A stretch of DNA of 64,000 nt from Escherichia coli (GTDB lineage: Bacteria > Pseudomonadota > Gammaproteobacteria > Enterobacterales > Enterobacteriaceae), in assembly GCF_003334815.1 (NCBI RefSeq), contig NZ_QOWO01000003.1. One strand, given 5' to 3'. Within the stretch, counting starts at the first letter, position 1, and each line of letters opens with the position of its first letter. This document shows positions 58,205 through 63,032 of this stretch, piece after piece. The notes under the pieces were generated by a model. It was not told where the DNA came from. It searched no databases and saw only the letters and a program-made list of their open reading frames with translations. The translations under genes were made by a program, and so were the position numbers.

Positions 58205-59542
58205 TTAATCTTTGCTTATTGGTGCATCTAAGGGATACGGGTTTTTATGTAGCCGGTTGTAATTCAGCGCATACATGGCGGTGATGACCATCAGGGTGAC
58301 AAATGACCACATAACCTCTTTCGCTCCGGACCCCACCACGGCCCAGATGCAGTAGAGGAAGGCAATGGTAGTAACTGCCAGATATGCCGGGCGTGCTTTA
58401 CCAAAGTGACCGTGTCCGAGCAGCAGTAACGCCGCACAGGTGTAAAGATATGGCACCAGTGTAAAGATGACCGAGACGGAAGAAACCAGACCGAACTCTT
58501 TGGTCGCGTTTGGTGAAATGCTGCTGAGCTGGAAGATGGTCATCAAAATACCGACGATAATCAGCCCCGCCACTGGCGTACCCGCTTTATTTACACGGGC
58601 AAAAATCGGTGGGAACAGTCCGTCATCGGCAGCGGCTTTCGCCGTTTGACCCGCCAGCAACGTCCAGCCGCCCAGTGAACCTAAGCAACCCGCAGCTGCG
58701 CAGAAGGAAACAATGGCCCCGGCGGTGTCACCCAACGCCATCCGTGCGGCATCACCGAATGGCGAAGCAGAAACGCGCAGTGCGGCATTAGGGATCATCC
58801 CCATAATCGCGGTGGTAGAAAGTACATAGCAAACGGCGGCAATCAATACCCCACCAATGGTGGCGATAGGGACATTGCGTTTCGGGTTTTTCACCACACC
58901 TGCGGCAACGGAGGCACTTTCCACACCGATGAACGACCACAGCGTAACGTTAAGGGTACTTTGAATTGCACCGAAGGTGCCCAGGCCGCTGACGTTCCAT
59001 GCCGCCATATAGGTTTCACCACGGAACCAGAACCAGCCAAATACGGCAATCCCGACGATGGGGATCAGCGCCAGCACGGTGGCAACTGCCTGCACACGGG
59101 TGATCATTTTCGGACCGACAATGTTCAGCAGGACGAAGATCCACAGCACCACGACGCAGGTGATGGTTAATACCAATGGATCTTTCAGAATCGGGAAGAA
59201 GTAACTTAAATATCCTACGCCAATGACCACCATGGCGATATTGCCGATCCAGCAGGCCAGCCAGTAGAGGACGTTGGTTTGATAACCGAGAAACGGGCCA
59301 AAGCAGCGGCGGGCGTAAGCGTAAGAACCACCAGGACTTGGGTCGAGGAACGACATTTTGGCGTATACCATCGAGAGCCCCAGTGCACCGATAATCGTCA
59401 CCAACCATCCATAAATGGCAATCCCGCCAGTAGAGGCCAGGTTTGCAGGTAACAGAAAAACACCTGACCCCATAATATTCCCCGACACCATCAGGGTGAC
59501 GGGGATTAAGCCCACTTTGTGAGCATCAGCATCCGAAGACAT
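58205..59542 (-). CDS. adiC: Arginine:agmatine antiporter
   Basis: ORF track 445 aa; APC superfamily. Confidence 0.95.
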
Positions 59543-59678
59543 AATTAAACTCCTGCGAAGGCGAGCTTCGTGACAATAAATTACGTCATATCATACGCCT
59601 GCATTCGATAGTTGAATTATTATCGACCGGGTTATCGCTGATGCCGTTATTAATATAGCTCTTCGTTAAGGTTAAAAA

Positions 59679-60440
59679 TCAGGCGACAGTGCGTTCTCTG
59701 TGCTGACTAACATAATGCAGCGGCGTCATACCGTAGAAGTCTTTAAAGACAGAAATAAAGTACGACGTACTGTTGTAGCCGCAGGACTGTGATACCTGAG
59801 AGATATTTTTACCGTCCATCATTAATTCATTTACGGCATAACGCATGCGGCAGGTGGTGATTATTTGGCTATAACTGGTGTTTTCGCTTTTCAACTTTTT
59901 CTTTAACAGACTTGGGCTAAGACATAAACAACTGGCTACCATACTAAGATTCCAGTCTTTGTGAATATCGCTTTCAATAATTTGATAAACGCTGTCACTT
60001 ACACAATTACGTAACATATACATCATTAATGAAACGAATTTTTTACTGTCGAGAAAACGGGATAGCACCGTGAATAATAATGCGCGTGTTCGTTCCTTTT
60101 CTGACTCAGTTTCTGCGGGCATCATGCTGTGTTGCGCGGCAACGCGAAAGACGTCTGGCGTCAGGCATGGCAGGGTGAGTATGGGCGTAGCGCTACGTTG
60201 CCATACTGGTATTTGCGAGAGATCTTTATTCAGAAACCGGAGGTAATCTTTGATGATGTCGTGACTAATATGAGCAACCAAAGTGTTGTTAAGAGAGGAG
60301 ACGTCGATAATATTATTTTCACAATTTAATAACGCCATATGGTTAGCTTTAAGGCTAATAGGTTCTTTCCCATTCACCCTTATCCAGACATCTTTTTCAG
60401 TCAATAAAACAATACAAGGTTGGTCGCTGCAAATCCTCAT
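59679..60440 (-). CDS. adiY: AraC-family regulator of the arginine decarboxylase system
   Basis: ORF track 253 aa; C-terminal AraC helix-turn-helix. Confidence 0.93.
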   Translation of the reverse strand: MRICSDQPCIVLLTEKDVWIRVNGKEPISLKANHMALLNCENNIIDVSSLNNTLVAHISHDIIKDYLRFLNKDLSQIPVWQRSATPILTLPCLTPDVFRVAAQHSMMPAETESEKERTRALLFTVLSRFLDSKKFVSLMMYMLRNCVSDSVYQIIESDIHKDWNLSMVASCLCLSPSLLKKKLKSENTSYSQIITTCRMRYAVNELMMDGKNISQVSQSCGYNSTSYFISVFKDFYGMTPLHYVSQHRERTVA

Positions 60441-60619
60441 ACATGTACTCCTGAGTGCGAATAAAAGACCAGTTCTCGCTAAAGCAAAGCGATACCGGGA
60501 AATGGTTATATAATTGTATGATGAATATAAACATGCATAAAAATAACGAGTTTTACTAATAGTACAAATTTTTATAGTAATTTCTCATGTACATATTTTT
60601 TTACAGGATAAATAACAGG

Positions 60620-60648
60620 CAAAAAAAAGCGCGGGGTGGGCCCGCGCA
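60620..60648 (-). terminator. Rho-independent terminator downstream of adiA
   Basis: Hairpin GCGCGGGG-TGGG-CCCGCGC with an A-run on the plus strand (T-run on the transcribed strand). Confidence 0.6.
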
Positions 60649-60764
60649 AAAAGTATGACATTTTTGTTTGCAGCAATTTTTATGAAAACGTTGCCATACT
60701 CAAAAGGCCTAAGGCCAGGCGGCGTAATGTTATTTAAACAATTACGCCTTCAGCGGAATAGTGG

Positions 60765-63032
60765 TTACGCTTTCACGCACATAACGTGGTAAATACCGTC
60801 AATAATTTCAGTCCCTTCAGTTTCGTGTTCAAATCCAGGGAAATGGTGGTCCCAGGATTGCAGCGAGCGTAAATAACTTACTTGCGGACTGTTTTTATCG
60901 CCGAAGTTTTCACCAGACAGCAGCATCGGGATTCCTGGCGGATACGGGATAACTGAGTTTGCCGCGATGCGTCCTGGCAGATTTTCAATGGATACCAGTT
61001 CGACATTGTTGTCGACAATCGCGTTGTACGCTTCACGCGGGGTGACTTCCGCCACCGGCAGGCCGGAATAGGCTTCGTTCAACCGTGCGCCAGGGTTGTT
61101 TTCTTTCAGCCAGGCAAACATGGTGTCACCCAGATCGTGAATCCCCATGTTCGCGTAAGTGTCAGGATATTGTTCAACAAGTTCCGGCATCACCTGCGCC
61201 AGCGGTGTGTTGGCGTCATAGTGGCGTTTGAAGGAGCAAAGGGTGTTAACCAGAGTTCCCCATTTCCCACGGGTTACGCCCATAGAGAACAGGAACATAA
61301 TTTGGAAGTCAGTGGTGCGGGTAGGTACAATGCCGTGGCGACCAAGCCAGGCAGTGACCAGCGCCGCCGGAACACCGGTTTCTTCCAGTTCACCATCTTC
61401 ACCCATTCCCGGAGCAAGGATGCTGACTTTAATCGGGTCGAGCATACTCCAGTTATCCGGAATATCTTTGAAGCCGTGCCAGCTTTCGCCCGGATGCATT
61501 ACCCAGCAGTCCTGAACGGTGGTCAGCAGTTTGGTTGGTGCGTCAGCAAAGTCATAGGTTTTGCCGGTTTGTGGGTCGGTGACGACTTCTTTGTTCCACG
61601 GTTTGAAGAACCAGCTACCGTCAGCGGTGAACTCTTTATATAGCCGCGCCATCGCCTGACGGAAATCAACCGCTTCGTCAATCACTTCCTGTGTCAGTGA
61701 CAGGCCGCTGTTGCCGTCCATCATCGACACCGCCACGTCGTTGGATGCGCAGATGGCATACAGCGGGGAGGTGGTGGCATGCATCATGTAGGCCTGGTTG
61801 AAGCGGGAGAAGTTAATCGCCCCACGACCTTCACGTACATGAATATAAGAAGCCTGTGACAGCGCATTCAGCAGTTTGTGGGTGGAGTGGGTGGCGAAAA
61901 CGGTAGGACCGTTGTGATCGCCAGGTTCGCCGCGCATGGCATAGTGATCGGCATAGATCGGGTTGAAACGTGCATAGCCGTACCAGGCTTCGTCAAAGTG
62001 CAGACGATCGGAGGTTTTTTCCAGCAGATCCTGCGCTTCTTTAGCGTTATAACACACGCCGTCATAGGTGCAGTTGGTCACCACGCAGTAAGACGGTTTT
62101 TGCCCGGCTTTGTCTTTGGTCAGCGGGCTTTCACTGATTTTCTTCTGCAAGGTTTCAGGTTGCATTTCCTGCGGATAGATTGGCCCGATAATGCCGTAGC
62201 GGTTGCGGCTTGGCACCATATAGACCGGTTTCGCGCCTGTCAGCATCAAACCTTGTTCGATGGATTTATGGCAGTTACGGTCAACGACCACGACATCGTT
62301 ATCGGTCATGCAAGCCTGCATGATGGTGCGGTTAGAGCCGGAAGTACCGACGACTACCGACCAGGAGCGATCGGCACCAAATACGCGTGCGGCATATTTT
62401 TCGCTTTCGCCAAATGCGCCAGTATGGTCAAGCAAAGAACCGAGGGAAGTTCGTTCGATGCCCATGTCGGTGCGGAACAGATTTTCACCATAGTAGTCAT
62501 GGTAGAAACGTCCGGCGGGTGTTTTGGTAAAACCAACGCCGCCCTGGTGGCCTGGCGCTGCCCAGGAATATTCATGGATGTCACTATATTTCATCAGCGC
62601 GCTGAACAGTGGCGGCAACAGCTGCTGGCGGTAGCGGGTCATCGCGGCAACGGCGCGTCCGGCGATAAAGTCGGCGGTATCTTCCAGAATCCAGGCGAAT
62701 TCATCGACAAGCTCCAGCAGGTCGCGATCCATTGCGGCGAGGGCTTTTTCCCGATCGCCCAACAGGAAGACCGGCACGTTTTGTTGGCGCTCATGAAGCT
62801 TACCGATCAATTGTCTGACGTTTTGATGTTCGTCCGGATGTTCCATTTGATAGCTGAACATCAGGCAGTCAATGGCTTCGTTTGAAGAGAGAATGGCAAA
62901 ACCATCATCAAAGGAGGTGGATTTAATCACGGTAACATTTTGCTGGCTTAAAGCATCTGCCAGACGCTCAACGGCGTTACCGACCCAGGTGTCTTGATGG
63001 AGAAACTCGCTTTCAACAATTAATACTTTCAT
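60765..63032 (-). CDS. adiA: Biodegradative (acid-inducible) arginine decarboxylase
   Basis: ORF track 756 aa with MM start, second Met taken as start (755 aa); fold-type I PLP decarboxylase. Confidence 0.95.
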   Translation of the reverse strand: MKVLIVESEFLHQDTWVGNAVERLADALSQQNVTVIKSTSFDDGFAILSSNEAIDCLMFSYQMEHPDEHQNVRQLIGKLHERQQNVPVFLLGDREKALAAMDRDLLELVDEFAWILEDTADFIAGRAVAAMTRYRQQLLPPLFSALMKYSDIHEYSWAAPGHQGGVGFTKTPAGRFYHDYYGENLFRTDMGIERTSLGSLLDHTGAFGESEKYAARVFGADRSWSVVVGTSGSNRTIMQACMTDNDVVVVDRNCHKSIEQGLMLTGAKPVYMVPSRNRYGIIGPIYPQEMQPETLQKKISESPLTKDKAGQKPSYCVVTNCTYDGVCYNAKEAQDLLEKTSDRLHFDEAWYGYARFNPIYADHYAMRGEPGDHNGPTVFATHSTHKLLNALSQASYIHVREGRGAINFSRFNQAYMMHATTSPLYAICASNDVAVSMMDGNSGLSLTQEVIDEAVDFRQAMARLYKEFTADGSWFFKPWNKEVVTDPQTGKTYDFADAPTKLLTTVQDCWVMHPGESWHGFKDIPDNWSMLDPIKVSILAPGMGEDGELEETGVPAALVTAWLGRHGIVPTRTTDFQIMFLFSMGVTRGKWGTLVNTLCSFKRHYDANTPLAQVMPELVEQYPDTYANMGIHDLGDTMFAWLKENNPGARLNEAYSGLPVAEVTPREAYNAIVDNNVELVSIENLPGRIAANSVIPYPPGIPMLLSGENFGDKNSPQVSYLRSLQSWDHHFPGFEHETEGTEIIDGIYHVMCVKA

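Follow-up and report, generated by a model that had tools for sequence, protein, structure and literature searches.

Gene content and identity of the locus

The window analyzed here is a stretch of 64,000 nucleotides from an Escherichia coli contig (NZ_QOWO01000003.1, assembly GCF_003334815.1). Between positions 58205 and 63032 it carries three minus-strand ORFs, adiC, adiY and adiA, whose coordinates are exactly those of RefSeq (Table 1). As open reading frames they span 58205-59542 (445 aa), 59679-60440 (253 aa) and 60765-63035 (756 aa). In RefSeq, adiA starts at 63032, one codon inside the longest ORF (which is extendable by one Met codon, to 63035), and this equals the end coordinate used in the first-pass annotation. 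AdiA matched the NCBIfam equivalog NF011603 with 1706.8 bits (cut-off 1167; coverage 1-756 of 756), and its residues 1-755 matched the E. coli structure PDB 2vyc with 1784.6 bits. AdiC scored 892.2 bits against the equivalog NF007929 (cut-off 574), and its residues 1-445 matched PDB 3lrb, 5j4i and 3ob6 (solved E. coli structures including 3lrb). The coordinates of adiY are those of the RefSeq AdiY gene (WP_001217060.1), and both published pH-sensing residues, His34 and His60, are present in its translation.

The locus is almost certainly the canonical Adi (AR3) arginine-dependent acid-resistance system, arranged as three separately controlled minus-strand units. We met no evidence contradicting this identification, and the sequence match excludes that the ORFs encode anything but the named proteins. 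The complete module of decarboxylase, AraC regulator and antiporter in one orientation, as described in the first-pass annotation, is thus borne out by NCBIfam, PDB and RefSeq coordinates. The system, which aids enterobacteria in surviving stomach acid, is already known: its genes, structures, regulator, H-NS control, pH-sensing mechanism and 3'UTR sRNA have all been published.

Table 1. Features of the adi locus (positions in the window; strand cell empty where none was assigned)
Feature	Position	Strand	Evidence
Candidate adiC terminator, 13-bp palindromic hairpin in the adiC-eptA gap	58151..58180		Terminator-like scan
adiC, arginine/agmatine antiporter, 445 aa	58205..59542	-	NCBIfam NF007929; PDB 3lrb, 5j4i
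adiC promoter region (adiC-adiY intergenic), GC 0.382	59543..59678	-	Composition; published AdiY target
adiY, AraC/XylS-family activator and cytoplasmic pH sensor, 253 aa	59679..60440	-	RefSeq WP_001217060.1
adiY upstream/promoter region, GC 0.300, most AT-rich part of the cluster	60441..60620	-	Composition; conserved blocks
adiA 3'UTR, Escherichia-type adiZ homolog	60621..60764	-	Terminator scan; RNA fold; alignment
adiA, biodegradative (acid-inducible) arginine decarboxylase, 755 aa	60765..63032	-	NCBIfam NF011603; PDB 2vyc; RefSeq
adiA promoter region (adiA-melR intergenic), GC 0.348	63033..63230	-	Composition; published AdiY target

The hairpin in the adiC-eptA gap was picked up on both strands and is a consensus-level match only.

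The MG1655 annotation was placed on the window by BLAST, and genes, order, strand and coordinates were all like those of E. coli K-12 adiA-adiY-adiC (b4117-b4115). The region 57900-63400 (5.5 kb) was identical to MG1655 at 5500 of 5501 bases (10154 bits); many other E. coli chromosomes also matched it over 100% of its length with one mismatch, and it was found in 5418 of the 5426 complete E. coli genomes. There were no nucleotide differences from the MG1655 record in the coding sequences of the three genes. The sole mismatch, at 60641, falls inside the stem of the adiA terminator (read on the RNA, G here and C in MG1655) and lengthens the GC stem from 6 bp to 7 bp, with a computed energy of -14.4 kcal/mol vs -10.8 kcal/mol in MG1655. 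The variant occurred in 0 of the 5426 complete genomes; this private SNP and the GC deficit that adiY shows in all species sampled (see below) are minor additions to what has been published. The window and the MG1655 record also differ by indels.

Base composition of the cluster

Windowed GC analysis revealed a non-uniform composition across the cluster, with a dip at adiY, as the first-pass annotation had expected. GC drops relative to the surroundings at adiY (0.413) and in its 180-bp upstream region (0.300), the mean gene GC in the window being 0.539 and that of the whole window 0.528. The coding sequence is indeed noticeably more AT-rich than the enzyme genes (0.527 in adiA and 0.537 in adiC), ranking second lowest among the 56 annotated genes of the window (z = -2.24; only espX5 is lower) and within the lowest 4.7% of sliding windows of equal length. 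GC is low at each of the three codon positions (GC1 0.417, GC2 0.366, GC3 0.457; GC3 is 0.594 in adiA and 0.608 in adiC), and by GC3 adiY holds rank 3 in the window. The adjoining AraC-family regulator melR has a GC content of 0.496 over the part that lies within the window. Some other stretches of the window are equally or more AT-rich (e.g., 4551-5900, 35600-35900 and 49000-49450).

The spacer between adiY and adiA had likewise been singled out as AT-rich, and with a GC content of 0.361 it is so relative to the enzyme genes. As intergenic DNA it is ordinary, ranking 6th among the 26 intergenic regions of at least 80 bp in the window (mean 0.441, sd 0.093; adiC-adiY 0.382, adiA-melR 0.348), and we therefore rejected its AT-richness as a special signal. 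The compositional oddity is limited to the adiY coding sequence and does not include the spacer. This quantitative statement on gene and spacer is what the composition analysis adds; the understanding of the system is unchanged by it.

The adiA 3'UTR and its relation to AdiZ

The spacer is composite, which the first-pass annotation had missed. Its first ~145 nt (~45%) are adiA 3'UTR (GC 0.438), and the other 180 nt (30% GC) precede adiY. Reading from the adiA stop codon, the 3'UTR comprises a 5' hairpin (~60745-60718), a second hairpin, a U-rich stretch, a GC stem-loop (60647-60629) and a run of eight T residues (60628-60621). In the terminator scan the stem-loop had 7/7 GC pairs followed by T8, and the RNA fold of the whole element had a predicted energy of -44.4 kcal/mol (z = -2.97). 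Since the 3'UTR ends at a strong terminator, we suggest that the spacer be annotated as adiA 3'UTR (adiZ homolog) plus adiY promoter.

In Salmonella, the adiA 3'UTR gives rise to AdiZ (STnc1180), an sRNA that binds Hfq, is processed by RNase E and has homologs in an Escherichia-Shigella cluster (PMC12746102); its description includes seed regions for pairing with ptsG, pykF and dmsA. Like AdiZ, the E. coli element follows the adiA stop codon immediately and lies on the adiA strand, and the 3' modules are nearly identical (ATTGCTGCAA...TGTCATAC, U-rich stretch, GC terminator and U-tail). In our alignment of Escherichia, Citrobacter and Salmonella, the block ATTGCTGCAA...TGTCATAC(C)TTTTTGCGCGG..CCCGCGCTTTTTTT was conserved: both arms of the terminator stem and the U-run ahead of them did not vary, and the rest of the block hardly did, whereas the 5' part was genus-specific. 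This conservation pattern agrees with Fig. 1C of PMC12746102. The two elements differ in length (~144 nt in E. coli, counted through the T-run, vs 95 nt plus 12 in Salmonella), in the extra 5' hairpin of E. coli, and in the RNase E site, where the eight U residues of Salmonella are reduced to UUUU in E. coli; furthermore, the SgrS-like ptsG seed of Salmonella AdiZ is not conserved in Escherichia (PMC12746102). An Rfam scan of 57500-64000 (E <= 1) returned two sub-threshold chance matches over the terminator (AgvB and ncS54), and no curated Rfam family matched the 3'UTR. Judged by position and alignment, the E. coli adiA 3'UTR represents the Escherichia version of AdiZ, a putative sRNA.

Conservation of the locus and of the adiY deficit

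The gene order adiA-adiY-adiC on a single strand was also found in 31 loci of other species, distributed over Escherichia, Citrobacter, Salmonella, Yokenella, Kluyvera, Kosakonia, Hafnia and further Enterobacteriaceae (at least seven genera). In all 31 the GC content of adiY lies 9.3-14.0 points below the adiA/adiC mean, and its GC3 is 10-22 points lower; low GC is a conserved property of adiY in every adiY-bearing locus sampled. Protein identity across these loci is 49-98% for AdiY, 91-100% for AdiC and 80-99% for AdiA. In 17 Xenorhabdus loci adiA and adiC stand ~20-70 bp apart without adiY, and more distant adiA loci likewise lack it; adiY has been described as confined to Enterobacteriaceae (PMC8989999). 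Outside Escherichia, His60 of AdiY is replaced by Arg or Lys, a change that we do not put forward as novel because it has been published for Salmonella and Citrobacter (PMC12826058).

No NCBIfam model is specific for AdiY, whose best match was GadX (154 bits, below cut-off), also the best non-self match in PDB (3mkl, E = 4.6e-28); YdeO, HilD, Rns, CsvR and ToxT were further relatives among the non-self matches. AdiY fell below every curated cut-off of the GadX/GadW/YdeO and Rns/ToxT-type families and so is an orthologous group of its own. GadX, Rns, CsvR and ToxT are typically AT-rich, H-NS-associated regulators. AdiY differs from the GadX/GadW/YdeO and Rns/ToxT regulators in that its signal is the protonation of two histidines and no small ligand, and in that it binds DNA as a tetramer (PMC12826058).

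H-NS, promoters and pH sensing

Blocks of the adiY upstream region that are kept in three genera include TGTACA, TTATTTT, ATTCATCA.ACAA and a GGAGT ribosome-binding site. A sigma-70 promoter scan gave 9 sites (6.8 +/- 2.5 expected), one of them in the adiA-melR region (63101-63073; a promoter-like site by consensus match only) and no convincing one upstream of adiY, and was therefore not used for placing promoters. The high-affinity H-NS nucleation motif TCGATAAATT (<=2 mismatches) had 73 matches in the window (58.3 +/- 7.6 expected); the three in 59543-60764, each with two mismatches, are about what the AT content predicts.

Published measurements bear directly on these regions. Purified H-NS preferentially binds the adiY promoter in competitive gel shifts in vitro, adiY mRNA is up five-fold in an hns mutant, and H-NS represses adiY and regulates gadX, gadW and ydeO (PMC2984483). 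The AdiY tetramer binds the PadiA fragment, whose primers match the adiA-melR region, with a KD of ~170 nM and the PadiC fragment (from the end of adiY through the adiC-adiY gap) with a KD of ~120 nM, both at pH 6.0; it does not bind the adiY promoter fragment, hence there is no autoregulatory binding (PMC12826058). With the same K-12 promoter fragments, adiA and adiC are strongly induced by low pH and oxygen limitation in an AdiY-dependent manner, whereas PadiY is weak, with consistently low output and only a modest acid response, the acid being sensed post-translationally through protonation of His34 and His60 (PMC12826058). Salmonella adiY responds to anaerobiosis and not to acid (PMC12746102), and AdiY is present at 11-37 copies per cell (PMC8989999).

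The AT-richness had been taken as typical of silenced, acid-induced loci. For adiY, silencing is supported by the H-NS binding and the five-fold rise (PMC2984483), while its own acid response is only modest (PMC12826058). Strong acid induction is a feature of adiA and adiC, which have average GC contents, and not of the AT-rich gene.

Proposed origin and maintenance of the AT-rich regulator

Most likely, adiY is an AT-rich AraC regulator of the GadX/Rns/ToxT kind that entered an adiA-adiC pair older than itself and, under H-NS, has been held at high AT content and low expression; both the insertion history and the selection for AT-richness are what we infer. Loss of adiY in Xenorhabdus would be the alternative to insertion. 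A more tentative reading, on balance improbable, has two parts. In the first, the ~12-point deficit, which persists in at least seven genera despite divergence of AdiY to 49% identity, would be actively maintained and not a fading trace of acquisition; the pH sensor would then depend on an AT-rich coding sequence and 180-bp leader for expression that is H-NS-dependent, low-copy and noisy. In the second, the 5' part of the adiA 3'UTR, being peculiar to Escherichia, would make it an AdiZ variant with a target set other than that of Salmonella.

The low GC content might instead be a leftover of horizontal acquisition that has not adjusted to the host, with H-NS binding passively and the AT-richness having no maintained function. 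The lack of adiY in the Xenorhabdus pair and in more distant adiA loci, its reported restriction to Enterobacteriaceae (PMC8989999), and GadX, Rns, CsvR and ToxT as the nearest characterised relatives speak for such a relic, which we regard as possible but doubtful. A passive relic is expected to drift toward host composition, so the similar deficit in 31 of 31 loci (-9 to -14 points; GC3 -10 to -22), despite 49% AdiY identity and varying host GC, counts against it. It is unlikely that weak codon selection at very low expression, together with AT-coded residues, explains the composition with no link to silencing: all codon positions of adiY are low and the protein has merely 11-37 copies per cell (PMC8989999), yet the adjoining melR, also of the AraC family, stays at 0.496 in its part inside the window, espX5 alone of 56 genes falls below adiY, and experiments have recorded both the binding of H-NS and the derepression of adiY (PMC2984483). 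A meaningless chance fluctuation, which might be thought of given the equally AT-rich stretches elsewhere in the window and the spacer's rank of just 6th of 26, is hardly credible for the second lowest of 56 genes, and recurrence of the deficit in all 31 independent orthologous loci effectively refutes it.

The system works as follows; the H-NS binding, the pH-sensing mechanism and the biogenesis of AdiZ (known from Salmonella) are taken from the literature, and gene identities, composition, terminator and cross-species conservation were computed here. A weak, AT-rich, H-NS-bound promoter holds adiY very low. As the cytoplasm acidifies, protonation of His34 and His60 changes the conformation of AdiY, which then binds as a tetramer to the promoters of adiA and adiC. 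Arginine is decarboxylated by AdiA, which uses up a proton, and AdiC swaps the product agmatine for external arginine. The adiA transcript ends at the strong intrinsic terminator ~140 nt past the stop codon, its 3'UTR being the Escherichia version of AdiZ, a putative sRNA.

The lysine system cadC-cadBA likewise combines a decarboxylase, an antiporter and a dedicated H-NS-repressed regulator; its decarboxylase is homologous (AdiA against CadA/LdcC 552-593 bits), and AdiC against CadB gave 372 bits. There, the regulator CadC is a ToxR-like sensor integrated in the membrane, its gene lies upstream, and cadBA form one operon. In the Adi system the regulator is of the AraC type and cytoplasmic, and its gene stands between two structural genes that are transcribed separately.

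Identity and conservation of the adi cluster

The adiA-adiY-adiC locus is a textbook system that is already known; what we add is that the adiY gene is compositionally unusual and its spacer to adiA ordinary, that this spacer is composite, and that the GC deficit of adiY is conserved across genera. An ORF scan of positions 55000-64000 identified adiC, adiY and adiA as three large minus-strand ORFs (the adiA ORF opens with two ATG codons in a row, of which the second is the RefSeq start), and the MG1655 annotation places the three genes exactly within 58205-63032, the limits proposed in the first-pass annotation, with eptA downstream and melR upstream. 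AdiA and AdiC scored above their NCBIfam equivalog cut-offs (1706.8 vs 1167 bits and 892.2 vs 574 bits, respectively) and aligned over their full lengths with E. coli structures already solved (2vyc for AdiA; 3lrb, 5j4i and 3ob6 for AdiC). NCBIfam contains no model specific to AdiY, and the protein's highest-scoring hits there were GadX, YdeO, HilD and HilC, each below cut-off; its best PDB matches were the GadX DNA-binding domain, Rns, CsvR and ToxT, and both His34 and His60 are present in the translation. The complete module in a single orientation that had been described from the sequence is thus borne out by ORFs, RefSeq coordinates, NCBIfam and PDB. The gap that separates the stop codon of adiC from the start of eptA contains a perfect 13-bp palindromic hairpin (58151-58180) with a terminator-like score on both strands.

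By megablast, the region 57900-63400 was present in 5418 of the 5426 complete E. coli genomes, with query coverage of at least 80% in 5402 of the 5426, and all of the best 10 matches, including K-12 MG1655, reached 10154 bits, i.e., one mismatch in 5501 bases.

Features of the adi cluster, with base composition
Feature	Position	Strand	GC	GC3	Remarks
adiC	58205-59542	minus	0.537	0.608	ORF 445 aa, RefSeq coordinates
adiC-adiY spacer			0.382		
adiY	59679-60440	minus	0.413	0.457	ORF 253 aa, RefSeq coordinates; GC1 0.417, GC2 0.366
adiY-adiA spacer			0.361		
adiY leader	60441-60620		0.300		180 bp
adiA 3′UTR (adiZ homolog)	60621-60764		0.438		
adiA terminator	stem 60647-60629; T8 run 60628-60621	minus			7/7 G-C pairs
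adiA	60765-63035	minus	0.527	0.594	ORF 756 aa; RefSeq start at 63032
adiA-melR spacer			0.348		
Whole window			0.528		

Base composition

The MG1655 annotation (56 annotated genes) was mapped onto the window by BLAST, as the two sequences are not colinear, and the genes were ranked by GC. Composition across the cluster is not uniform: adiA and adiC lie at the mean of the window genes, and adiY is the second lowest of the 56 (z = -2.24), as the first-pass annotation had proposed in calling it markedly more AT-rich than the enzyme genes. The neighbouring AraC-family gene melR (part inside the window) has a GC of 0.496, so membership of the AraC family alone cannot account for the dip. The companion claim of a notably AT-rich adiY-adiA spacer stood only in part: its GC is below that of the enzyme genes, but it is the sixth most AT-rich of the 26 intergenic regions that span 80 bp or more (mean GC 0.441, sd 0.093) and is ordinary for intergenic DNA. 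The only window gene below adiY is espX5 (4793-6085; annotated as a T3SS effector pentapeptide-repeat protein), the most AT-rich in the window (GC 0.330, GC3 0.316), which accounts for its deepest GC trough at about 4550-5900.

Published data bear on the remark that such composition is typical of silenced, acid-induced loci. The adiY promoter fragment is a preferred target of H-NS, which binds it, and an hns mutant contains five-fold more adiY mRNA (PMC2984483). In the window itself, a scan for the H-NS nucleation motif (up to two mismatches) gave 73 matches against 58.3 +/- 7.6 expected, and the three weak matches in 59543-60764 are about as many as AT content predicts. AdiY is a one-component pH sensor of the cytoplasm whose conformation shifts on protonation of His34 and His60; at pH 5.8-6.3 its tetramer binds the adiA and adiC promoters, not that of adiY, whose activity is constantly low and rises only modestly when conditions are both acidic and microaerobic (PMC12826058). 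The stimulus for adiY in Salmonella is anaerobiosis, not acid (PMC12746102). A cell contains 11-37 copies of AdiY, and raising this number lowers cell-to-cell heterogeneity (PMC8989999); adiY mRNA is a pairing partner of SgrS (PMC8989999, PMC12746102). Silencing therefore fits adiY, but acid induction fits adiA and adiC, two genes of average coding GC. The observation holds, and its interpretation is essentially correct.

The adiA 3′UTR and the adiY leader

The adiY-adiA spacer consists of two parts, the adiA 3′UTR and the much more AT-rich adiY leader. A terminator scan placed a strong intrinsic terminator about 120-145 nt past the adiA stop codon, and the predicted fold of the 3′UTR is more stable than those of shuffled versions (-44.4 kcal/mol, z = -2.97). 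When the spacers of 12 loci from Escherichia, Citrobacter and Salmonella were aligned, a near-invariant block was found (ATTGCTGCAA...TGTCATAC(C)TTTTTGCGCGG..CCCGCGCTTTTTTT), 5′ of which the sequence varies by genus; in the adiY leader, short blocks are conserved in the three genera. This pattern matches that published in 2025 for AdiZ (formerly STnc1180), an Hfq-binding sRNA of 95 nt that RNase E releases from the 3′UTR of Salmonella adiA. Homologs were also described for an Escherichia-Shigella cluster; they retain the terminator and U-rich module and vary elsewhere (PMC12746102). Unlike Salmonella AdiZ, the E. coli homolog carries an additional 5′ hairpin and has only UUUU at the position of the Salmonella 8-U RNase E site; it is also reported to lack the SgrS-like ptsG seed (PMC12746102). 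No Rfam model matched the adiA 3′UTR.

The sole base difference from MG1655 inside the cluster, 60641, falls within this terminator stem. On the RNA strand it is G here, C in K-12-type genomes and U in some other Escherichia; G raises the stem from 6 to 7 G-C pairs (-14.4 vs -10.8 kcal/mol) and is a return to the Citrobacter/Salmonella state. The allele was not found in the 5426 complete E. coli genomes, the best match of the surrounding 161 bp being 160/161.

Related loci in other species

An AdiA scan of one genome per species gave 80 loci, in which AdiY and AdiC were then located by tblastn. The order adiA-adiY-adiC was found in 31 loci (Escherichia, Citrobacter, Salmonella, Yokenella, Kluyvera, Kosakonia, Hafnia and further Enterobacteriaceae). 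In all 31, adiY has a lower GC than the mean of its two neighbours (by 9.3-14.0 points, mean -11.9), and its GC3 is 10-22 points under that of adiA/adiC. Identity ranges from 49 to 98% for AdiY, far below AdiC (91-100%) and AdiA (80-99%), which indicates much faster evolution of the regulator. His34 is conserved in most AdiY orthologs; outside Escherichia, His60 is replaced by Arg or Lys, a change previously published for Salmonella and Citrobacter (PMC12826058). In Hafnia (L024:2712-3470; L025:9600-10358), adiA and adiC flank a 253-aa AdiY-like gene of the AraC family, which matches over its full length at 49-51% identity and retains His34, although Hafnia was listed as without AdiY in a survey with a strict BLAST threshold (PMC8989999). 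In Citrobacter amalonaticus AUH_CA_2023_1 (L011:9603-10133) the AdiY match is limited to residues 1-177 of 253, perhaps because adiY is disrupted or the assembly is faulty there.

No AdiY homolog was found within 7 kb in 17 Xenorhabdus loci (L029-L045 and L049 listed; e.g., L029:7001-10616), where adiA and adiC are directly adjacent (gap of about 20-70 bp), suggesting an operon-type arrangement without an intervening regulator. In the Vibrionaceae and Shewanella loci, adiA is preceded only by an antiporter of 35% identity. These patterns fit the published survey, which found adiY in Enterobacteriaceae alone and adiC over a wider range (PMC8989999), and suggest that adiY was added to a pre-existing adiA-adiC pair; alternatively, adiY may have been lost in Xenorhabdus.

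An insert of 1.5-2.3 kb separates adiA from adiY in Yokenella, Kluyvera, Kosakonia and Enterobacter sp. Bisph1 (L018, L019, L022, L046, L074). The one insert inspected (Yokenella, L018:9397-11112) contains a small LuxR/EvgA-type HTH regulator, hdeD (223 bits) and hdeA (139.9 bits), the latter two above cut-off; judged by gene content, the Yokenella locus is a predicted acid island combining arginine decarboxylase and periplasmic chaperone.

Other differences from MG1655

The window differs from the MG1655 record CP032667 by about 20 SNPs in its 64 kb, and it is K-12-like but not MG1655, as indicated by an 89-bp deletion that splits yjcS (27511-29420; alkyl sulfatase, 661 aa in MG1655) into ORFs of 367 and 269 aa. 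A tandem REP-like array between yjdN and yjdM (48616-48895; 100-bp period) has 2.8 copies vs about 5.8 in the MG1655 record (three fewer copies here; 300 bp more there), and another lies between gltP and yjcO (18845-19332; 113-bp period, 4.3 copies). phnE (45254-46041) corresponds to the frameshifted K-12 pseudogene allele, its 788 nt matching the record annotated as "frameshifted" with one mismatch and zero gaps.
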